From NCBI GenBank assembly GCA_963733195.1, contig CAVTCR010000009.1, forward strand, positions 64,001-128,000: a stretch of DNA of 64,000 bases, read 5' to 3'. Below are positions 30,594 to 49,095 of this stretch, piece after piece. Below the pieces are notes generated by a model. The model saw only the letters and a list, made by a program, of their open reading frames with translations. It was not told where the DNA came from and made no database searches. The stretch comes from an uncultured delta proteobacterium (lineage in GTDB: Bacteria; Desulfobacterota; Binatia; Bin18). A program made the position numbers and the translations under genes. Numbering within the stretch: position 1 is the stretch's first letter; the number at the start of each line of letters is the position of its first letter.

Positions 30594-32709
30594 CTACCAG
30601 GTCCTCTTACGCGGCGGTTGCCAGCCGCTACTCGACCGACCCGACCCGAAGCGGTTTGAGCTTCCACTGTTTTCGTAGCGGTTTGAACGCCAGGCATTCT
30701 CGCGGCTATCGTCGTCTTCCATGAGGAAGACTGGCTCGATGATCTTGCGTGAAAGGCCATCAAGAAACCGTGACGGCTTACTCAGTACCATGCCTGTTGC
30801 TCTGTCAAAGACATTGATGGGATAGGAGATGAACAGTTTCTCTTTGGCGCGAGTGACGGCGACGTACATCAAGCGGCGCTCTTCTTCTATCTCATCATCG
30901 TTCTTGTTGTACAGCGACGGGAAACGGCCTTCCGTCGCCCAAATGACAAACACCGAGTGCCATTCAAGCCCTTTGGCCGAGTGGATAGTAGAAAGTGTGA
31001 GCAGTCCTTCTTCTTCCCGATCAGTAGCGAGCACATCGCCGACACTGCTGTTTGGCGGTTCCAGTGCCATATCTGCCAGCAACTTCTCCAGACTGGTATA
31101 ACGTTCAGTGATTACAATAAAGTGTTCAAGATCCTTTTGTCGCTTGGGGTAATCGTCGCGGTGATTACGTTTCAAAATTGGCTGATAGTATTTCACCACT
31201 GCTTCGATTTGCTCTGCCGGCTTCATATCGGGCGTGTTGACCTCAGCCAGCAGCGCGGCGAGCCTCCGTAGCTCGTCGCCGATGACTCCCTTAGCCGAAT
31301 ACTCAGCCAGACGTTGCGCTTGATTCTCTCCAGCCACCACATGTGCCAGAATCTTCTCCGCACCCTTGGGACCAATACCTTCGAGCAACAGAATCACGCG
31401 ATGCCACGACACCGCATCCTGCGGGTTGGCGATAATCCGCAGATGGGCAAGGGTATCTTTCACGTGTGTGGTTTCGATAAACTTGAACCCACCACGTTTG
31501 ATAAAGGGAAGGTTTCGTTTGGCGAGCTCCAATTCAAGGTCGAATGAATGAAAGCTGGAACGAAAGAGGACGGCCATTTCTGTCAACGGAACGCCTTGCT
31601 CGCGCAACTCTAGAATCTTCTGTGCGACAAAGCGTGACTGATAGCGTTCGCTCTCGGCTTCGACAAGGGTAGGCTTTACGCCTTTATCACGACGAGTGAA
31701 AAGATTCTTAGTGTATTGATCCTTGGCATTCACGATAATCTGGTTGGAGAGATCAAGGATCGGCTGTGTACTGCGGTAATTCTCTTCTAGTTTGACGATC
31801 TTGGCACCAGGGAATAACGTGGGAAACTCTAAAATGTTGCGTACAGTGGCACCACGGAAACTGTAGATCGACTGTGCATCGTCGCCTACTGCCATAACAT
31901 TATCATGGGCGTGTGCGAGAGCGCGGATAATATCAGCCTGCAAGCGGTTCGTGTCCTGATACTCATCCACCATAATGTAACGGAAGGTGTGCGAAAGTCG
32001 GTCGGCAACTTCTGTATGATTGCGCAGGAGATCCCGCAGTTTGGTGAGCAGATCATCGTAGTCCAGTAGACTACGCTCATGTTTGTAGTGCCGGTAATAT
32101 TCATCGATGCGCATCAGCTCTTCGAGTTCAGAGAAGAGATGCGGGAATTGGTCATCCAGAACCTCAGCAACACTGCACATTTTGTTGGCTGCGAGACTGA
32201 CGATCTCCATGATCGTCTGCTTCTTTGGGAAATCGTCGTTCTTTCTTATCGAGCCCGAGACGCGCACGGATCAAATTGATGACATCCTCTGAATCGCCAC
32301 GGTCCAGAATAGTGAAAGAATTGGCGAATCCTAGTAACGAAGCGTAGCGGCGCAAGACTGTATTGGCAAACGAGTGAAACGTACCGCCGGTAACACGGTC
32401 ACATTGTGCACCCAGCAGTGCACCTGCCCGTTCAAGCATCTCCTCCGCAGCGCGACGAGTGAATGTCATGAGGAGAATCGACGTCGGATCGATCCCTTCT
32501 TCGACCATCCGTGCCACACGAAAGACGAGGGTACGAGTTTTGCCGCTGCCCGCACCGGCAAGCACTAGCATTGGTCCTTTGTGGGTAATGGCGGCTTCAT
32601 ACTGGGAGGGATTGAGCTCCGCCTGATAATCAATCAGGAACCGCCGAGGTTGCGTCGATTCGGTTTCGGGCTGCAACACATACTTCTGCGGACGTGTATC
32701 TTCGTTCAC
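30594..32709 (-). CDS. UvrD/PcrA-family ATP-dependent DNA helicase, one frameshift near 32225
   Basis: LAGAGSGKT, TFT, GTFHSF, VDEYQDTN, VGDDAQSIYSFRGA, NYRST, STIHSAKGLEW and EERRLMYVAVTRA motifs. Confidence 0.93.
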
Positions 32710-32916
32710 CACACCACTCCGCTGGAAACAGGATGAGGGGAACATAGCGGAAAAGCGTTCAACAGTCAGTAGCAAAGAAGGGGACAGGCCAGGAGTCGGG
32801 AGACGGTTTTTCCATATTCAGTAGTCAATCTTCTTGTCGGTTTTACTGACCCCTGATTCCCGTCCACTGGCTCCAGTTACTGACTACTGACGGCCGCTCT
32901 GCTATGAATTGAAGAT

Positions 32917-33994: not shown

Positions 33995-35318
33995 TTAATC
34001 GAACACCCGCTCTCCCGTGGCAAACAGCCACCACACGATGAGACCGAATACGTAAATCCCCGCAGAGATCAGGAACACCAACTGCCACGAGCCAGTAGTG
34101 TCGAGAATAACACCAGTGAGAGTCACTCCGATGATGCCAGGGAGTGTCCCCGCGGTATTAGAGAACCCGAGAAGAATGCCCGCGTAACGTGGCCCGATGT
34201 CCAGGTGATTCACGGCAAACCCTGATAAGGCAAACGCACCGAGTCCGAGCGCGCAACACATATAGAAGATCGCGAGCCCGATAGTGTTAACTCCGCTAAG
34301 CAGGGTGAGAAACGTTGCCGCGCCAAGAAAGCCGACGGTTTGCATCAGCTTGCGAACCAACGTGAGAGAGAATTCCTGCCGTCAGGAGTCGATCCGCTGT
34401 CCAACCCGCGACGTTACTCATCAAGAACATGACTAGCCACGGCAGTACGGTGTAGATGCCGACCTTATGGAGTTCGGCGTGCAGCACTTGCGTGAAGTAG
34501 GTCGGTAGCCACGTGAGGATGACATAAAATCCCCAGTTCGAGCAAAAATGGTTGATGATGATCGCCCACACCGGAGCTTTCGAGAGCAACAGACCCCAGG
34601 GGATTTTTTCATTCTTTGCCGGAGCGGGAGTATTGGCGCGGATTGCTTCTACTTCATCGTGGCTAATAGACGAGTGGGTTTCTGGAGAGTCAGACGCAAA
34701 GAAATGCCAGAAAGCGTACCACACGAATCCCAACATGCCGAACGCATAGAAGACGGCAGGCCAGCCCCACTGTGTAACGATGACTGGAGTGAAGAACAGT
34801 GCTGCGACAGTTCCCAATGGAATACCACTGGCATTAAACGCGACTGATCGGGCCCGTTCTTGACGCGGAATCCACTGTGCAAACAGATTGTGAATAGCTG
34901 GAAACGCAACTCCTTCGCCAAAGCCCATACCGACCCGGGCGATAAATAGCCAGGTAAACGAGACAAAGGCTGCTGGTGGTGTAAGTAGTGTGAAGACTGA
35001 CCACCAGAGGACTCCGAAGCCCAGCACAACCTTGCCACCATAGCGATCAGCTAACCAGCCGCCGAGAACTTGTGTAGCGAGATACCCATAAAAGAACGAC
35101 GAGAGGACAATGCCACGCGTGGTTTGATCCCACCCAAACTCCGTGACCATTGGGATCACCGCCACCGACATGTTGACGCGATCGATGTAGCAAATAAACG
35201 TACTGAAAAAACACAAGATGACGAGCGTGAAACGTCGCGGCCAATATTGGCTGAGTGGAACGGTAGAGATCGGCGTTGATGAAAAACTGCTTGGTTCTGG
35301 TGCCGACTGCACAGCCAT
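33995..35318 (-). CDS. ACS-family (SLC17/PHT4-like) MFS transporter, one frameshift near 34372
   Basis: YIDRVNMSVA, SSFFYGY, GGWLADRYGGK, WLPTYF and NHLDIGPRYAG motifs. Confidence 0.9.
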
Positions 35319-35602: not shown

Positions 35603-35923
35603 ATGAGTACGCATGCAAGCGACCTGGATGTCGCAGTCACGCCACAGTTTGCCGTTCCCACCGCTCACGAGGCAATCGCACGAGTTAATCGTTGGCTGCA
35701 TCGTGAAATTGGAATCGCCATTCATGCGGCGGGAGCGGCCTTTGACCCCGTCACGTTTTATTGGCATGTGCCCATTGAACTGGCCTACGGTGCGACCGGC
35801 CCACTTGGAGTAGTCGGGGACGTATATATACATGCGGCAACAGGCGATTTCGCTGGTCGACCTAATACTGAGGAATTTCGCCAACGTGCGGAAGCGTTAG
35901 CCATCGCGCATGGAATCGAGTGA
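35603..35923 (+). CDS. Hypothetical protein with PepSY-like motif
   Basis: AHEAIARVNRWL helix, WHVP and VYIHAATG; its stop overlaps the next start (GTGATG). Confidence 0.7.
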   Translation: MSTHASDLDVAVTPQFAVPTAHEAIARVNRWLHREIGIAIHAAGAAFDPVTFYWHVPIELAYGATGPLGVVGDVYIHAATGDFAGRPNTEEFRQRAEALAIAHGIE

Positions 35924-36375
35924 TGCTGGTCTGGTACGCCCAGGAACTTCAGTCCTCGTGCGTTGCCGCGTGTGTGCGAATGGTCCTTGGGGGGCTGGGA
36001 ACACAGATTGCCGAATCCCAGGTTCGCCGTCTCGTCGGCCACTCGCGATTAGGGACATCTCTCACTTTAGCCCAGATGCAACTGAGTAAAGCTGGAATAA
36101 CCGTGCGAATGCATACAGACTGGAGTCTTGATGATCTACGCGACGCGTTACGCGCGGGCTACCATCCAATTGTGGGAGTTGAGCGCCATCTGCTGGGATA
36201 CTCGCGCGCTTTTCATGCGGTCGTTTTGGTTGAGATCACCAGCGCGACGGTGACTGCTCTCGATCCTCTCGATGGTCCAGAACCACGGCGCTACGAAGTT
36301 CCAGCTTTCGTATCAGCTTGGGATATGGCTGGACGGGAAGCTTTAGTGATCAACGCAGCACCACTCACTCTGTGA
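35920..36375 (+). CDS. Stand-alone C39-like papain-fold cysteine peptidase
   Basis: Q-x5-C (AQELQSSCVAAC), HAVVLV and DP; no signal peptide or ABC domain. Confidence 0.85.
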   Translation: MMLVWYAQELQSSCVAACVRMVLGGLGTQIAESQVRRLVGHSRLGTSLTLAQMQLSKAGITVRMHTDWSLDDLRDALRAGYHPIVGVERHLLGYSRAFHAVVLVEITSATVTALDPLDGPEPRRYEVPAFVSAWDMAGREALVINAAPLTL

Positions 36376-36780: not shown

Positions 36781-37404
36781 TCACTGAGGCCGCCTCAATG
36801 CCACGCCACTTCCCGATGCTCTCTCGGTTGCCGCATCGAGTTGTAACCCAAACCCATCAGCTAAGCGGGTGAGATAGTTGAAAATCCCGACGACATGAGC
36901 GACTTCGAGGCAGGCTTGGTCGTTAAAGCCGAGACCTCGCAGCGGTTGCCAATCCTCTTCGACCATCTTTGTTGGTGTAGCGCTGAGCTTTTCCGCGACC
37001 GTACACAGCGCTTGCTCACGAGCAGAGAGGTCTGGCACTTCGCGCCAGCACTTTTGCTTGATCGCTTCCACTAGCATTGGATTACCAAGCTCTGCACGCA
37101 GGAACTCTGCGTGAGATTGCGTTCAATAGTGACAGTCTTGCGCAGCCGCGGCGACACCAGCGATCATCTCACGCTCTTGCCGCGAAAGGACACTCTCTGG
37201 TGACCACATAATCTCGCTAAAAAGCTTGCTCCAAGTTTGGGCGATACGTGGATGGGTACGAATGAGTCGCCCCATCGCAGGAAGAAAGCCAAAATCATAT
37301 GGATATCTCGAACCGGGTGGAAGCTGAGCTCGGACGTCTGCCTCGGTCGGGATCGTCACCCACGCTTCTCGCCTTGCCTCAGGCGATTTGCTTGCAGTTG
37401 CCAT
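36781..37404 (-). CDS. AhpD/carboxymuconolactone-decarboxylase-like selenoprotein (C-H-Y-U), 207 aa
   Basis: ORFs 37123-37404 and 36781-37077 share a frame and are separated by one TGA at the second Cys position of the AhpD CxxCxxxH motif; SECIS downstream; LSRQEREMIA and FNYLTRLADGFG motifs; GAGGAG RBS. Confidence 0.9.
37091..37122 (-). promoter_or_regulatory. Bacterial SECIS element
   Basis: UGA-ACGCAAUCU-CACGCAG-AGUUC-CUGCGUG-CAGA: 7-bp perfect stem, G at loop position 2, 16 nt between the UGA and the loop. Confidence 0.8.
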
Positions 37405-37560
37405 AACGTACTCCTCGGAAATCAATTTGTGGGACAGTACCATGTCTACTTGTGAAAGGGCAAGAAAAAGCTGCGGGAGAAAAGCCCCAACTCACTTGCA
37501 AAAGACTGCACCGTAAGGCAGGGTAACCCCCTATCTGCCCGCAGGAGGAATAGGTGAGCC

Positions 37561-40500
37561 ATGGCCCGAGTCTCTCGGACGGTAGTGATACTTTGCTTTT
37601 TAGGATTGCTTGTTGTTCACGTTGCTTCTGCTGATAATCAAAATGCACCGGCGTTTACCGCGCACGGCCATCACGGCCACCATGGCCATCACGGGATGTT
37701 CTTCGATCAAGGCCAGACACGGGAGTCTCGTGAGCAAAGTGCCTCTTCAACGTTCGAGCGCATTCAGAATGAAGTTTTTACCCAAAGTTGCGCCTTGCAA
37801 TCATGCCACGGCTCAAATGCCAAAGCTGGAGATTTAGTGCTTGAAGCTGGGGCGTCGTATAACGCGCTGGTGAACACCTCTCCAGCCAACCCCATTGCGA
37901 ATGGTGCTGGAAAAAAACGCATTCTTCCCGGAGATCTTGATCGTAGCTTTCTGTGGAACAAGATTAGTGCTCCGCTTGCGAGTGGTGAAGGGGCTTCGAT
38001 GCCTCTCGGGTCAAACGGATTCATCAACCTGAACCCCGAACTGACAGAAGTGATCCGCAAGTGGATTCTCGCTGGTGCTCCCAAAGAAGGAATTGTCGAG
38101 GGAACGGGTGGCAGCGGCGGTAGTTCGTCTCAGCAACAGCCACCGATTGAGCCGTTGGCTCCGCCTGCTGCGGGGCAAGGGTTCCAGGTGAAGATTCCTG
38201 CTTTTGGACTCAACAATCAGCCAGAGCGTGAAGGCTGCCTCTTTGTGCGGTTGCCGAATACGGAACCAATTTACATGTCTGGGTATGAAATCCACATGCG
38301 TCCCGGAAGCCACCATTTCATTGTCTACAGTTACAATGGTGAAGCCTGCGACAAAGACAGTGACAACGATGGGACACCCAACTGCCTGGACCAAGATTCC
38401 GGCGAGGCATTCCCCCCTGAGTTTATCGATGACATCGGCTGTAACGACAAAGGGCCGCGTGACAGTTTCCAGAAGTCGTTCATTGCCGGTGCACAGACGC
38501 CAACCTCAAAAGTCTTCTATCCACAAGGCATCGCTCTTAAACTAGAACCGCACCAAGGTCTGCTCCTTAATGCCCATTACATTAACTACTATCAGAACAC
38601 CCAAGGCGAAGTGCTGCTGAATATCAACACCGTGCCAGCCAGTGCCGTGCAGTATGAGGCGAAGATTATTTTCGATGTCATTGCCAATTCGTTTATTTCC
38701 GTTCCCCCACAAGCAGTGAAAGAATCACGCTGGGCGTGGTCACCGAGTAAACGCTCTGCAATTTTAGGTTTGACCTCGCATATGCATAAGCGCGGGACAC
38801 AGTTTACTATTGACCACTTTGGTGCTGATGGGGCCGACAAAAATCCGGCCAACGGACCAATGGATGACCAAGGAAAGCGGCATCTATATGTGAATAATGA
38901 CTACGCCGACCCGGCCAATCTGAATTTTGCCTCACCGCTCATTCTCGAACCTGGCGAACTGCTGTCCTACACGTGTCGACATGACAACGGTATGTCCCGT
39001 CCAATCAAGATGGGATGTGAAGAGACGGCTGGTGTTGCTCCTGGACGTCCGCTCGAAGCTGCTCGCCGCTGTCAGAGTGACACTGAGTGTACGGGTTTTG
39101 GTACTGGGCGCTGTGTGCCTGCAAACTTGGTGTTTGGCTATACCTCAGACGACGAGATGTGCATCATGCCTGGAGTCTACTACGAGTTAGAAGCCAATAC
39201 TGGTGGTGGTGGATCGTCTTCTTTTGCGATGACCCAGGTGACACGCAGCACTGATAACCCAGCAAGTGCGCTCGCGGAAGAAAGTTTTACGACCTCGCTC
39301 AGTGGAGATGGAACTCGCTTGGCGTTTACTTCTAGCGCCGATCTCGTGGGACAGAATGCCGATGGATCGCTAGAGGTGTTTACTGCTGACCTTGCGACCG
39401 CACCACCGACTGTACGCCAATTGACGTCGGCAAGCGGGGGAACGCTTGCAAGTGCTTTCCCTGCCCTCAGCAATGATGGAACAACGGTTGCGTTTACCTC
39501 AAACGTGGACCTGTTGAAGAACGGGACGAACGGAGATGGCAATGTGGAAATCTTCGTTGCCGATTTCGACGGGGGGAATCTGCGCCAACTGACAAATACA
39601 TCAACTGGCGCCAATGGTCCGTTCTTGAGCAGTACGGGTGAGTTGCTGAACCTGTTAGGGCTCGCGATTAATGGCAATGGCAGTGTCGTTGCGTTTACCT
39701 CTACAGCGCCGTTAGGTGGACGGAGTAGCACCTCACAAGAGGTTTTTATTCTTGGTACGAACGGGAGTGGGCTCCGTCAACTCACGAGTGGGACGGTTGG
39801 CAACAGCACAAACCCCAATTTAGCGATTAACGGAGTAACGATCACTGAAGATGGCTCTCGGATCGCGTTCTCCTCGACCGGCGACTACTTGAGCAGCAAT
39901 AGTTTCCAGATTCCTCAGATATTCACCATTGCCAGCGACGGCTCTGGGTTACGGCAACTGACCGTTTTCAGTCAGGGCTCCTGTGAAGAAAGTGGTGGGA
40001 CCGTGTGTGTCGGCACCTTTGTTACCCCGACCTTTAGTGACGATGGCAGTCGTATTGGTTTCTTGCGATTACTGGTGAACCTCGACAACCTCACTTCGCC
40101 GAAGTTGCTCAATACCGAGCCGTTTATTATGAATGCAGACGGAACTGGGCGACAGCAGCTTTTCGATGCGCCTTCTGCGCAGGTGAACTGTTCTCCAGTC
40201 GCGTTAAGTCGGAACGGAAGCCAAACTTCCTTCATCTGTACCGACGACGCTGTGCAGCAAGGAAAACTGTACGTGAATAGCTCCGGAGGCGGGTCACTAC
40301 AAACGGTGATTGGCCCCTTCCCGAACTCCGGTTTAACTGCACCGCCGGCGCTCAGTGATGCCGGTAGCACGATTGCATTTCCCGCTAAAGCCAATCCCAG
40401 CGGACAGAATGGTGATGGGAATGCTGAGGTTTTTGTTGCTGCTCAGAGTGGAGGTGGAACGGCATCTGCGCTAGAGAACCCTCGTGCAGGTTCAACTCAG

Positions 40501-41322
40501 AGCGGTATCGGCATTATTAGTGGCTGGGCGTGTCGCGCCAATCGCATTGATATTGTGATCGACGATACGCACCAGCTGCAAGCAGTGTATGGAACAGGTC
40601 GAGAAGACACGCGCTCAATGTGTAACGATACCGATAATGGATTTTCACTCTTGGTGAACTGGAACCTCTTACCCAGTGGAACTCACACTGCTCGCGTGTT
40701 AGCCGACGGAGTAGAAATTGCACGAACGACTTTTAACGTGAGTTCCTTAGGGTCGGAGTTCCTCAAAGGTCTTAGTGGGGAATGTACCGTACCGAACTTC
40801 CCACAGTCAGGAACCACTACTCCAGTACATTGGGATGAAAGTCTACAAAACTTTGTCCTTGGCCCGAATCAGAACAGTGGTGGAAACACTGGAGTCGATG
40901 GCAACGCTACTGCGAAACTCGAAAATCCTGCTAGTGGGTCGACGCAAAGTGGCATCAGCGTGGTGAGTGGGTGGGCGTGTCAAGCTGGGAAAGTGGAACT
41001 TGTCATTGATGGTACGATTCGCTTACCCGCCGACTACGGTTCAGACCGTGAAGATACACGTCAGATCTGTAATGATACGAACAATGGCTTTGCCCTCTTG
41101 GTAAACTGGAACCTCCTTCCGAAGGGGCCGCACACGCTAGCGGTTGTTATTGATGGAACCGAAGTTGCCAACGTCCCGTTTACCGTGACAAATCTTGGTT
41201 CGGAATTTCTGACTGGTGTGAGCGGCGAATGTTCAGTGTCAAACTTCCCGCAGTCGGGGAAGACAACGAAAGTCCGTTGGGATGAAGGCTTGCAGCGTTT
41301 CGGAATTGTTGAGGTGGAGTGA
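37561..41322 (+). CDS. Secreted multidomain protein: His-rich tag, c-type cytochrome, copper type II (PHM/DBM-like) monooxygenase, TolB-like propeller, two C-terminal repeats
   Basis: Sec signal ending ASA; HGHHGHHGHHG; CALQSCH...MP...WILAGAP; SHHF, AHY, SHMH and DEMC; PD40-like repeats; two LENP..SGI..SGWAC repeats. Confidence 0.85.
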   Translation: MARVSRTVVILCFLGLLVVHVASADNQNAPAFTAHGHHGHHGHHGMFFDQGQTRESREQSASSTFERIQNEVFTQSCALQSCHGSNAKAGDLVLEAGASYNALVNTSPANPIANGAGKKRILPGDLDRSFLWNKISAPLASGEGASMPLGSNGFINLNPELTEVIRKWILAGAPKEGIVEGTGGSGGSSSQQQPPIEPLAPPAAGQGFQVKIPAFGLNNQPEREGCLFVRLPNTEPIYMSGYEIHMRPGSHHFIVYSYNGEACDKDSDNDGTPNCLDQDSGEAFPPEFIDDIGCNDKGPRDSFQKSFIAGAQTPTSKVFYPQGIALKLEPHQGLLLNAHYINYYQNTQGEVLLNINTVPASAVQYEAKIIFDVIANSFISVPPQAVKESRWAWSPSKRSAILGLTSHMHKRGTQFTIDHFGADGADKNPANGPMDDQGKRHLYVNNDYADPANLNFASPLILEPGELLSYTCRHDNGMSRPIKMGCEETAGVAPGRPLEAARRCQSDTECTGFGTGRCVPANLVFGYTSDDEMCIMPGVYYELEANTGGGGSSSFAMTQVTRSTDNPASALAEESFTTSLSGDGTRLAFTSSADLVGQNADGSLEVFTADLATAPPTVRQLTSASGGTLASAFPALSNDGTTVAFTSNVDLLKNGTNGDGNVEIFVADFDGGNLRQLTNTSTGANGPFLSSTGELLNLLGLAINGNGSVVAFTSTAPLGGRSSTSQEVFILGTNGSGLRQLTSGTVGNSTNPNLAINGVTITEDGSRIAFSSTGDYLSSNSFQIPQIFTIASDGSGLRQLTVFSQGSCEESGGTVCVGTFVTPTFSDDGSRIGFLRLLVNLDNLTSPKLLNTEPFIMNADGTGRQQLFDAPSAQVNCSPVALSRNGSQTSFICTDDAVQQGKLYVNSSGGGSLQTVIGPFPNSGLTAPPALSDAGSTIAFPAKANPSGQNGDGNAEVFVAAQSGGGTASALENPRAGSTQSGIGIISGWACRANRIDIVIDDTHQLQAVYGTGREDTRSMCNDTDNGFSLLVNWNLLPSGTHTARVLADGVEIARTTFNVSSLGSEFLKGLSGECTVPNFPQSGTTTPVHWDESLQNFVLGPNQNSGGNTGVDGNATAKLENPASGSTQSGISVVSGWACQAGKVELVIDGTIRLPADYGSDREDTRQICNDTNNGFALLVNWNLLPKGPHTLAVVIDGTEVANVPFTVTNLGSEFLTGVSGECSVSNFPQSGKTTKVRWDEGLQRFGIVEVE

Positions 41323-41967: not shown

Positions 41968-42999
41968 TCACAATTGAGGGTGTACGTCAAATTGGCTGAG
42001 GGAGTTTGGTCCGAGCAATTGTTCACCGACTTTGCGGCCCGGTCCCCCGCGATCAATCATCGCTTGCGCGTCTCGACGCAAATGCGCCCAACACAGCTGG
42101 CGTTGGCGGAGCGGAGAACAGTCATACGCTTTGGCCCGATCACTCCCAATTATTCCGGCGTAGTCCTTTCCTAACAACTCGTGGAGGACTTTTGCTCCAC
42201 GCGAGCGCCGAATCGCATACACACTGGCCTGCGGTGTTACCACGGTCCATAAGTGCACCCGGCGATTCTGCTCCCGCCATCGCGTTTCATCTACATTCGT
42301 ATCGCTCCACCGCACACAATCTCGGACATCGTCGACGGGGTCGCTCACCGCACGCCTCACCACCTGTTCTAACCCACAGACTTCGCCAAGCGAGAGCGGA
42401 ATGCCCCACACTTCACGGCTGAAGTGCGCAATCATACGCTTGCTCATCCGGTACGCCCCACTACATAAGGCCACAATACTGGTGAAGCATGGCCCATAGC
42501 CCGTCGTGGGAACGCCTTGCGGTAATTCTCCACACGTCGTGATCCCACAGTGATCGCAGGACAACCGGTGTTGTTGATACTCCGTCACGTGCGGCAGCGG
42601 CGGCGGCAATTCCACTACTTGATGCCGATGGGGTTGCGGATCGCTCCCGTGCAACCCTTGGCCACACCGCCGACAGTGGGTCGGGGTACAGACAATCACT
42701 TCATTGACCTGCTCCACGGGCACTAACGTGCGGTGATGCGCGGGATGGCCTGGTTGTCCGCCTCGTTTACGGCCTGAGGAGGGACACGGTGGCTTGCGCT
42801 TCACGTGCGGCCCATCACTCAAGGGTGGTTTGGAGGAGTTCTGGGAATTCTGGTTGCGCTGTGCTTTCAACTCGGCCACTTCGGCTTCAAGTTTGGTAAT
42901 CCGCGCTTCCTGACGATCGAACACCTCCCACAACACCGCTTGCACATGCAGTGGAATCTGCTCCCATAACTCGACCGGTATTGGCGGCGTGCGTTCCAT
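41968..42999 (-). mobile_element. IS66-family transposase (single-ORF type), 3'-truncated
   Basis: NSQNSSKPP, GGQPGH, CxxC zinc finger, VDET, GSDR and QLCWAHLRR motifs; the C-terminal TNN..ER region is missing. Confidence 0.9.
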
Positions 43000-48238: not shown

Positions 48239-49095
48239 GAGGCTGTCTGAGAAGTTCAAACCGGTGCCAACCGTCTGAGCATCAAGCGAATCATCGCGAT
48301 GTAAATCATGGCTTCACTGCTAGCGGGTAACACCTCATAGTCTTTGCTCAAGCGACGATACTGATTGAGCCAGGCCCAAGTCCGCTCCACGATCCAGCGG
48401 CGCGGGAGGACCACGAACCCCTTCTGTGCGTCGGACCGAAGCACGGGCTGTAAGCGAAACCAAAAGTGCGTAGCTCCCACCCGACCAACTGGCCCCGATA
48501 GGCCCCATCCACCCATATCACCCGCAGCTTCTTGCACGCCCCACCCACGCGGCGCAACAAGCACCGCGCCCCGGCGGGGTCCGAGCACGACGCGACCGTC
48601 ACGACTACCACCATCACCAACCCCAAAGTATCGACGAGCAGATGCCGCTTCCGCCCTTTGACCTGTTTGCCCGCATCATAGCCCCGCACGCCCTCGATCT
48701 CCGTCGTCTTGACACTTTGACTGTCCAGACACCCGGCTGTCGGATGTTTATGCCGCCCGGCTTGCTGCCGGACCCGCGCTCGTAGCGTGTCGTGCAGCCG
48801 CTGCCACGTGCCGTTGTCCCTCCACTGGCGAAAATAATGGTACACACTCTTCCAGTTCGGATATTCGCGAGGTAACATCCGCCACTTGATCCCCCCGACC
48901 ACAACATACAGAATCGCGTTCAGGACTTGGCGCATGTCCAGGGTCCGCGGTCGCCCGCCCGGCTTTGCGGGCGGAATCAATTCTTTGCTAATGTCCCATT
49001 GACTGTCGGTTAAATCCGTTGGGTATAATTGGTTATGCATTCTCCAACGATACCCACCTGAGCCGATCGACAGTCAACCCTTCTCAGACAGCCTC
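48239..49095 (-). mobile_element. IS5 family (IS1031-like group) element, 857 bp; transposase 48256-49040 has one frameshift
   Basis: Perfect 16-bp TIRs GAGGCTGTCTGAGAAG; 3-bp TGA duplication on both sides; YPTDLTD.QW, DSQSVK, KGRKRH and RWIVERT motifs. Confidence 0.95.

Follow-up and report, generated by a model that had tools for sequence, protein, structure and literature searches.

A predicted haem c domain fused to a PHM/DBH-like copper domain in an exported protein of an uncultured Binatia bacterium

Animals use two-copper oxygenases of the type of peptidylglycine alpha-hydroxylating monooxygenase (PHM) and dopamine beta-hydroxylase (DBH) for noradrenaline and amidated peptide hormones. 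Both are textbook non-coupled binuclear copper enzymes, and the delivery of electrons to their CuH site and the long-range transfer from CuH to CuM are debated. A conformational change triggered by ascorbate is argued for in PMC9064607. A gene in a 64,000-nucleotide stretch of an uncultured Binatia bacterium (contig CAVTCR010000009.1, positions 64,001 to 128,000; hereafter the window) raises the question of whether a bacterial relative of these enzymes draws its electrons from a haem of its own. The gene is a single open reading frame (ORF) on the forward strand (37561..41322; 1,253 amino acids plus stop) and encodes, from N to C terminus, a signal peptide, a His-rich tract, a cytochrome c domain, a copper domain of the PHM/DBH fold, a PD40 propeller and two Ig-like repeats. 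We read the product as an exported, modular haem-copper monooxygenase in which haem c would feed electrons to CuH in place of ascorbate, and we put the probability of this reading at roughly 0.6.

Little of this is visible in current annotation. The database entry identical to the window protein carries no protein name, and fused relatives are listed as 'hypothetical protein', 'Tol biopolymer transport system component' or 'DUF4215 domain-containing protein'. Pfam reports only PD40 repeats on the uncut protein (E-value 5.3e-13) plus PSCyt1 at E 0.037, and an NCBIfam scan gives nothing above threshold, its propeller matches being far below it. Searches of full-text literature outside subscription journals found no description of a bacterial PHM-like enzyme or of a cytochrome-PHM fusion, and a term search of the main text of the Binatota genome paper (PMC8262859) found no 'peptidylglycine', 'dopamine' or 'ascorbate'. 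To that extent a preliminary description of the window, made from its sequence alone, was justified in calling the system undescribed. It had also placed the His tract, CX4CH, MP, HH, H, HxH, EMC and the Asp-rich loop exactly where the translation has them; its end point of 39190 fell short, as the ORF continues for a further 2.1 kb to 41322. Residue numbers used here equal (coordinate - 37561)/3 + 1, and all features of the protein lie on the forward strand.

Export is predicted from a Sec-type signal peptide at residues 1-24 (37561..37632), recognised by inspection of the translation: two Arg, a hydrophobic core and ...VASA before DNQ, without a lipobox. With the ligand conservation, profile and fold matches given below, it bears out the exported fusion of a cytochrome c with a PHM/DBH-like two-copper domain that the preliminary description had proposed.

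Copper ligands and kinship with PHM and DBH

The copper domain consists of two PHM-like beta-sandwiches placed from a structure model and from fold and profile matches, an N-terminal CuH subdomain at about residues 206-357 (38176..38631, boundary approximate) and a C-terminal CuM subdomain at about residues 358-545 (38632..39195). The three His ligands of CuH and the two His and one Met of CuM in PHM have one-to-one counterparts. For CuH these are H251-H252 (38311..38316; PHM H107/H108, aligned on HHM) and H339 (38575..38577; PHM H172, aligned on QVHY); for CuM they are H407-M-H409 (38779..38787; PHM H242/H244, aligned on HTH) and M533 in DDEMC (39157..39159; PHM M314, aligned on DEMC), with E532-M533-C534 covering 39154-39162. 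None of the six varies in any of 23 aligned relatives (23 of 23), the most distant of which is 27% identical. In an alignment of 108 sequences H251, H252 and H339 remain invariant (108/108), and H407, H409 and M533 are at least 90% conserved; chance falls far short of explaining such conservation. PDB titles name the PHM mutants H107A, H108A, H172A and M314I, and two of them state loss of CuH in H107A and H172A.

The homology is remote at the level of single sequences and clear at the level of profiles and folds. A phmmer search of residues 195-545 against PDB sequences returned no match. Searched against the PDB, the profile of the 108-row alignment recovered 13 different PHM/PAM sequences, with rat PHM best at E 1.9e-15, and human DBH (7.4e-12), pairing SHHf with vHHM, NsHY with QVHY, SHmHkrG with VHTHHLG and seDEMc with SSDEMC (family with PHM). 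An AlphaFold2 model of residues 46-550, built on the same alignment, has a mean predicted local distance difference test score (pLDDT) of 90.1 and a predicted template modelling score of 0.74. When this model was compared with the PDB by Foldseek, ranks 1-31 were all PHM or DBH (E 1.6e-13 to 2e-10, probability 1.00, TM score about 0.6 on the target), followed by double-jelly-roll capsid proteins at E of about 4e-5. VIA-align, a structure search that does not lean on Foldseek, gave Z 20.5 for PHM (root-mean-square deviation (rmsd) 3.5 A over 266 residues) and Z 13.8 for DBH, with everything else at Z 8.0 or less. By sequence profile and model, the copper domain is a true relative of PHM and DBH with predicted CuH and CuM sites.

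The family around it is large. Word-indexed searching with residues 46-545 turned up 44 proteins; some 30 of these, at 38-42% identity, are roughly 700 residues long and span both the cytochrome and copper domains. When residues 195-545 were compared exhaustively by phmmer with 1.84 billion cluster representatives, 820 clusters matched at E <= 1e-3; of these, 242 reached 1e-10 or lower and 26 reached 1e-30 or lower. Pfam recognises part of this family: among 60 relatives, Cu2_monoox_C matches 25 at E <= 0.01 and 13 above cut-off (top score 44.6 bits), and one relative has a weak Cu2_monooxygen match besides. None of the fused proteins of 35 related loci has a Pfam copper-domain match at E <= 1e-4. 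The window protein itself is predicted to be a distant member of the PHM/DBH superfamily, not a Pfam-defined one.

Compared with PHM (rat PAM core; PDB 1PHM, 1SDW, 1OPM), the window protein shares the two-beta-sandwich fold, the ligand set, the DEMC motif and several Cys but is only 13-14% identical. Its copper domain has ten Cys in all. It also differs from PHM in being exported, fused to a cytochrome c and free of a PAL partner, with haem rather than ascorbate as the presumed reductant, and in carrying an Asp-rich insertion between HH and H339. This loop, CDKDSDNDGTPNC (residues 263-275, 38347..38385), runs from C263 to C275 and matches TSP_3 weakly (E 0.0032; 17.6 bits, where 25 is the cut-off); a DxDxDG-type loop is retained within the close subfamily, in an alignment of 23, and possibly binds Ca2+. 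DBH (human, PDB 4ZEL, kin to tyramine beta-monooxygenase and MOXD1) shares the catalytic core and ligand set and, like the window protein, is a multidomain enzyme with an extra N-terminal domain. In DBH a DOMON domain and a dimerisation domain accompany the core and ascorbate is used, whereas the window protein has a haem c cytochrome at its N terminus and a propeller with Ig-like repeats at its C terminus.

Standalone PHM-like proteins of Sorangium share this copper-domain family, with phmmer E-values of 1e-14 to 1e-28 against the domain of the window protein, and carry the UniRef name 'Copper type II ascorbate-dependent monooxygenase C-terminal domain-containing protein'. They lack the cytochrome, and the window protein adds the PD40 propeller and two Ig-like repeats in cis. 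As Sorangium strains are cultured, these relatives offer an experimental way in.

The close full-length relatives P0002-P0008 and P0042 bear the precomputed Pfam family PF26549.1, which the Pfam scan of the window protein did not report; judged from which proteins bear it, this family probably lies after the copper domain.

The haem domain and its linkage to the copper domain

Ahead of the copper domain, residues 59-180 (37735..38100) resemble the cytochromes PSCyt1 and FoxE in Pfam, profile and fold matches, and a linker rich in Gly, Ser, Pro and Gln joins the two domains (residues 181-205, 38101..38175; identified by composition, pLDDT blocks 79 and 67). The domain has a single His, a single Met and just two Cys, exactly the residues that a His/Met-ligated haem c needs: C77, C82 and H83 form a CX4CH attachment motif (37789..37809), and M147, followed by P148 (37999..38004), is the candidate distal ligand, aligned with the RMPL of FoxE. 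We excised the domain by coordinate from 41 loci and two paralogues and aligned the 43 sequences (mean column identity 41%). C77, C82, H83 and M147 are invariant in all 43, as are P123, S129, W168 and I169, and the CX4CH spacing is kept in 42, the exception being a CX5CH in a paralogue (L002).

Matches to this domain are to cytochromes throughout. Pfam assigns members of the set of 43 to PSCyt1 (8), CTI (6), Cytochrome_CBB3 (3) and Cytochrom_C (1), all of them cytochrome c families, and the profile of the alignment finds only haem c proteins in the PDB, namely FoxE (E 2.3e-4) and the haem domain of hydrazine synthase alpha (3.9e-3). The profile alignment lays CH on CH of both and PMP...WIxAGAP on RMPL...WILAGAP of FoxE. 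FoxE (PDB 5MAB) is also nearest in structure: model residues 18-131 superpose with Z 7.4, a range of Z that can be common, at rmsd 3.1 A and 25% identity over 92 residues. Only the CH of one FoxE haem motif is aligned, and the window protein has a single-haem domain ahead of a copper enzyme. FoxE and PSCyt1 cytochromes use CXXCH. On this evidence the N-terminal domain is probably a c-type, class-I-like cytochrome domain with predicted haem.

The two domains are linked across the family. With a local hidden Markov model for each domain, we found a cytochrome in 100 of 191 retrieved relatives, in 98 ahead of the copper domain and in two behind it (P0132, P0187); 32 relatives are N-truncated fragments and three have other N-terminal extensions. 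In 87 of 88 fused proteins, 150-200 residues separate the haem His from the first His of CuH; the median is 163, and the window protein has 168. In a FastTree phylogeny built on 108 rows and 293 columns of the copper domain, with local supports only, the window protein falls in a clade (support 98) whose 20 rows all have the cytochrome. Cytochrome presence changes at least seven times on this tree, four of them forced by well-supported branches, against a mean of 29.7 in shuffles; some rows scored as lacking a cytochrome may be mis-called starts, which would inflate the count. CX4CH and CXXCH swap several times. The recurrence of the fusion, its occurrence in both domain orders and the tight spacing fit a haem that feeds CuH. 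In one ESM Atlas cluster of relatives, Cu2_monoox_C is found on 100% and Cytochrom_C on 12% of members, and hence the combination is visible to Pfam in a minority of them. Docking of the cytochrome against the copper domain with the haem carried along scored 0.00, which, run without controls, weighs neither way on binding.

The genome also encodes, on other contigs, two proteins that end in the same cytochrome module without a copper domain, at L002:871-1851 (326 residues, CX5CH) and L003:1204-1812 (202 residues, CX4CH). The N terminus of the first resembles the window protein's C-terminal Ig-like repeat (32% identity over 87 residues, E 1e-5), a likeness that the second does not have. Both could be free-standing electron carriers of the same system.

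Electron flow, substrate and the C-terminal modules

In the mechanism that we favour, the Ccm system would attach haem c in the periplasm, and the haem would be reduced one electron at a time by an external donor, for instance a periplasmic cytochrome or some other redox protein, and would pass the electrons to CuH, which is the job of ascorbate in the animal enzymes. CuM would then bind O2 and hydroxylate a C-H bond of a substrate other than a peptide with C-terminal glycine, with the propeller and Ig-like repeats holding the enzyme on, or admitting, a macromolecular or envelope-associated substrate. That a bacterial protein destined for export has haem c fused to it speaks for a donor other than ascorbate. 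We infer haem-to-copper transfer from the architecture. The enzyme would not be 'self-reducing', as the preliminary description had it; that term overstates the case, because haem c holds a single electron, which an external donor has to supply. A fused cytochrome c is the built-in cognate electron donor of three-domain copper nitrite reductases, according to PMC13324648. The likeness to these enzymes lies in the design principle only and is a working analogy rather than family membership, as they have a non-homologous cupredoxin fold with type 1 and type 2 copper and reduce nitrite instead of activating O2.

Several observations weigh against this reading. Pfam support is thin for both domains: of the three families that the preliminary description had named for a search, PSCyt1 just reaches its cut-off when the window protein is scanned in pieces or the haem domain alone (22.1-22.3 bits against 22; 22.1 for the N-terminal piece), Cu2_monoox_C scores 7.2 bits against 23, at the EMC region, and Cu2_monooxygen does not match. 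Ten of 101 cytochrome domains detected across the family lack CXnCH by regular expression, some of them truncated, and P0024 has Arg for the first Cys. A standalone copper domain without cytochrome occurs in 56 of the 191 relatives, so the copper core can work with some other reductant. No neighbour is conserved (no family occurs in more than three of 45 related loci), and the context gives no clue to donor or substrate. For transcription there is a weak hint: four contigs of 151 nt from a single soil metatranscriptome fall on the gene (likeness 95-99% for three and 90-95% for one), which could be DNA carry-over, and the parts of the gene without contig cover carry no information. Finally, the direction of electron flow cannot be fixed by sequence.

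This last point leaves room for a reverse flow, in which the copper domain would oxidise an organic compound or a reduced metal as an oxidase or dehydrogenase and haem c would pass the electrons to the respiratory chain, so that the protein would gain electrons instead of using them up in hydroxylation. FoxE, the nearest solved relative of the haem domain, is titled a putative iron oxidase in the PDB, and across the 45 loci no nearby partner that would supply reductant is conserved. However, the likeness to FoxE is that of the general class-I cytochrome fold, and the CuM Met ligand, typical of an O2-binding site, is conserved. To our knowledge, judging also from PDB titles, every PHM/DBH-fold member with this ligand set is an O2-activating monooxygenase that consumes two electrons. 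We consider the reverse direction unlikely.

It is likewise improbable, by our estimate, that the domain binds no haem at all, the Cys pair being a disulfide in a degenerate structural domain and copper being reduced by a small molecule or a separate protein. The rarity of CX4CH relative to CXXCH, the borderline PSCyt1 score, the low model confidence at the M147 loop (pLDDT 55 for the block of model residues 101-110) and the standalone copper domains would all suit such a domain. They are set against the invariance of Cys, Cys, His and Met in 43 of 43 sequences at modest overall identity and against the fact that every profile and Pfam match of the domain is a haem c protein. The motif found at the haem site across the 101 detected domains is CX4CH in 70, canonical CXXCH in 19, and CX3CH and CX5CH in one each. 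CX4CH is moreover a proven site, binding haem 3 of hydrazine dehydrogenase covalently in a solved structure (PMC6469936), and is among the haem c motifs listed in PMC11492766. A CcmE gene (85.8 bits), a 674-residue ORF resembling CcmF and CcmC-like ORFs are present in the genome, which is 93% complete and comprises 6.95 Mb in 87 contigs.

A PD40/TolB-like beta-propeller occupies about residues 561-990 (39241..40530; PD40 E 1.3e-15, fold matches) and is followed by Ig-like repeat 1 (residues 991-1120, 40531..40920) and Ig-like repeat 2 (residues 1121-1253, 40921..41319). The repeats make up the last 263 residues and are 63% identical over 114 residues, with Filamin and Big_7 matches below threshold; both are placed by this identity and the sub-threshold Pfam matches, repeat 1 also by a low-confidence model. 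A model of residues 546-1253 has a mean pLDDT of 66.9, mostly 70-90 in the propeller blocks and about 50-65 in the terminal repeats. In Foldseek this model comes closest to the propellers of S9 peptidases and TolB (E about 1e-12). Within the window organism's own family, the form with PD40 and Ig-like repeats is found only in the window's genus; elsewhere it is found on one Binatia chromosome (L004), the best-matching locus at 63% identity. Most relatives have no propeller at all.

Near the N terminus, the tract HGHHGHHGHHG (residues 35-45, 37663..37695) is restricted to the closest relatives in the alignment of 23, being shorter in P0003 and absent from P0005 at 62-64% identity. The suggestion that it loads copper finds no support in so lineage-specific a feature.

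The long modular layout with propeller and Ig-like repeats, which is typical of surface proteins, the His-rich tract and the lack of an operon context would also suit a surface or periplasmic protein that keeps an old fold for copper binding, copper buffering or adhesion and catalyses nothing. The copper sites are conserved over a family of 820 clusters (E <= 1e-3), which argues for selection on catalysis, and so is the linkage to a redox domain; we regard a non-catalytic role as very unlikely.

The substrate is constrained on one point. The Arg240 of PHM that salt-bridges the carboxylate of the peptide substrate (PMC9064607) corresponds to Thr in the family profile and to Thr405 in the window protein, and a glycine-extended peptide, one of the substrates earlier proposed for screening, is improbable for that reason. 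PHM N316 and Y318 align to I535 and P537. In PAM, the lyase PAL is a propeller with a His-bound Zn site. The propeller here has no His in 430 residues, so a His-bound Zn site as in PAL is impossible, and its PD40 type together with the lack of His in residues 561-990 rules out a PAL-like lyase; PAL is also not among the Foldseek matches listed for the propeller, an absence that alone is no evidence. Of the earlier proposal that the propeller binds or processes substrate, binding is the part that may hold. Although a PHM-like domain followed by a propeller recalls the order of PHM and PAL, and although this propeller resembles the peptide-handling ones of S9 peptidases and TolB, the His-free PD40 propeller, its absence from most relatives and Thr405 in the place of Arg240 make a bacterial counterpart of PAM, hydroxylating C-terminal glycine and releasing the amide, barely credible.

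Among the accessory modules of relatives are DUF4215 (Cys-rich), DUF7450, FG-GAP, dockerin, a type IX secretion system (T9SS) tail, collagen-like repeats and PEP-CTERM. They suggest that these proteins act on large substrates at the cell surface or beyond it, and the T9SS, PEP-CTERM and dockerin modules also speak for export. More tentatively, the family as a whole may be a widespread, unrecognised group of extracytoplasmic haem-copper monooxygenases that are wired by their cytochromes to respiratory or extracellular carriers, directed to insoluble or polymeric material outside the cell by modules that vary (a PD40 propeller in this protein; DUF4215, DUF7450, dockerin, FG-GAP and T9SS tails in others), and present in several copies per genome in Binatia-type soil bacteria. 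Such enzymes would be a bacterial, ascorbate-independent counterpart of the pairing of cellobiose dehydrogenase with lytic polysaccharide monooxygenase. A natural version with a covalently tethered one-electron donor would permit stepwise electron injection and optical tracking through the haem, would reveal a bacterial substitute for ascorbate, and would open up the chemistry and substrates of a family of at least 820 sequence clusters. With genes that are multi-copy in uncultured Binatia-related soil bacteria and carry surface or secretion modules, the system may matter for the oxidative turnover of extracellular organic matter.

One distant PHM-like domain stands apart. In a Thermodesulfobacteriota metagenome-assembled genome (MAG), the gene L047:5994-9350 encodes such a domain at 23% identity with no cytochrome part matched, and its C-terminal stretch matches Ald_deCOase, a long-chain fatty aldehyde decarbonylase family (34.7 bits against a cut-off of 28). 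The fusion is a hint that lipids or hydrocarbons may be substrates for part of the family.

Neighbourhood and distribution

The gene stands alone. An AGGAGG sequence resembling a Shine-Dalgarno site lies 12 nt upstream of the ATG (37543..37548, +), and a promoter and terminator scan found no more sites than in shuffled sequence. The upstream neighbour is a CMD/AhpD-like gene on the opposite strand, which is read as two ORFs. Downstream come an unknown ORF of 141 residues, a truncated IS66 transposase and a DUF1329 gene.

The 45 related loci were collected from public genomes with the 23-row alignment. Most carriers are MAGs that bear the label Candidatus Binatia or Deltaproteobacteria; some others belong to Myxococcota, Limnocylindria and Gemmatimonadaceae. 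The best neighbour clusters, each in three of the 45 loci, are generic: alpha/beta hydrolase, amidohydrolase, ADH, amine oxidase, SDR and histidine kinase. Propeller genes adjoin the fused gene in four of 35 loci (L021:7626-10154, L045:3045-5594, L011:3760-6204 and L044:1994-4171), in a scan that drew on 83 of 126 prepared references and left out ten of the 45 loci, which had an antisense ORF over the match or the gene cut off at a contig end. The adjoining propellers belong to three families (PQQ_2 twice, FG-GAP/ASPIC and BNR/Sortilin), and in the window protein and in L004 a PD40 propeller is part of the fused polypeptide itself. A loose, recurrent association with propellers is possible, weakened by the difference between the three families.

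Among 41 related genomes, 23 have some match. Within the organism's own family, matches over both domains are limited to the window's genus (G000, G002); the remaining hits are confined to the cytochrome domain, except for two, in G017 and G021, which cover the last columns of the profile. Six genomes from other families of the same class have 6 to 19 matches each. Searching the organism's own genome with the PF03712 profile gave no match, which is uninformative as the controls likewise matched nowhere. The gene or a close relative is present in soil and sediment metagenomes of several studies. Many of the matches in G028, G030, G031 and G038 show one in-frame TGA or TAG.

The IS66-family remnant lies just downstream of the gene (41968-42999, -), and an IS4/5-type transposase follows at 48348-49040 (-), 7 kb further. 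A full fusion limited to one genus, next to an insertion sequence remnant, would fit lateral acquisition, and the gene may have arrived by lateral transfer.

Elsewhere in the window, three genes are each read as two adjacent or overlapping ORFs on the same strand, a UvrD-like helicase (30594-32775), an MFS transporter (33995-35318) and the CMD/AhpD-like gene (36781-37443); they are either pseudogenes or assembly frameshift errors. At 35920-36375 (+), an ORF of 151 residues matches Peptidase_C39 (E 1.6e-7, 31.7 bits), among short unknown ORFs and without an ABC transporter domain.

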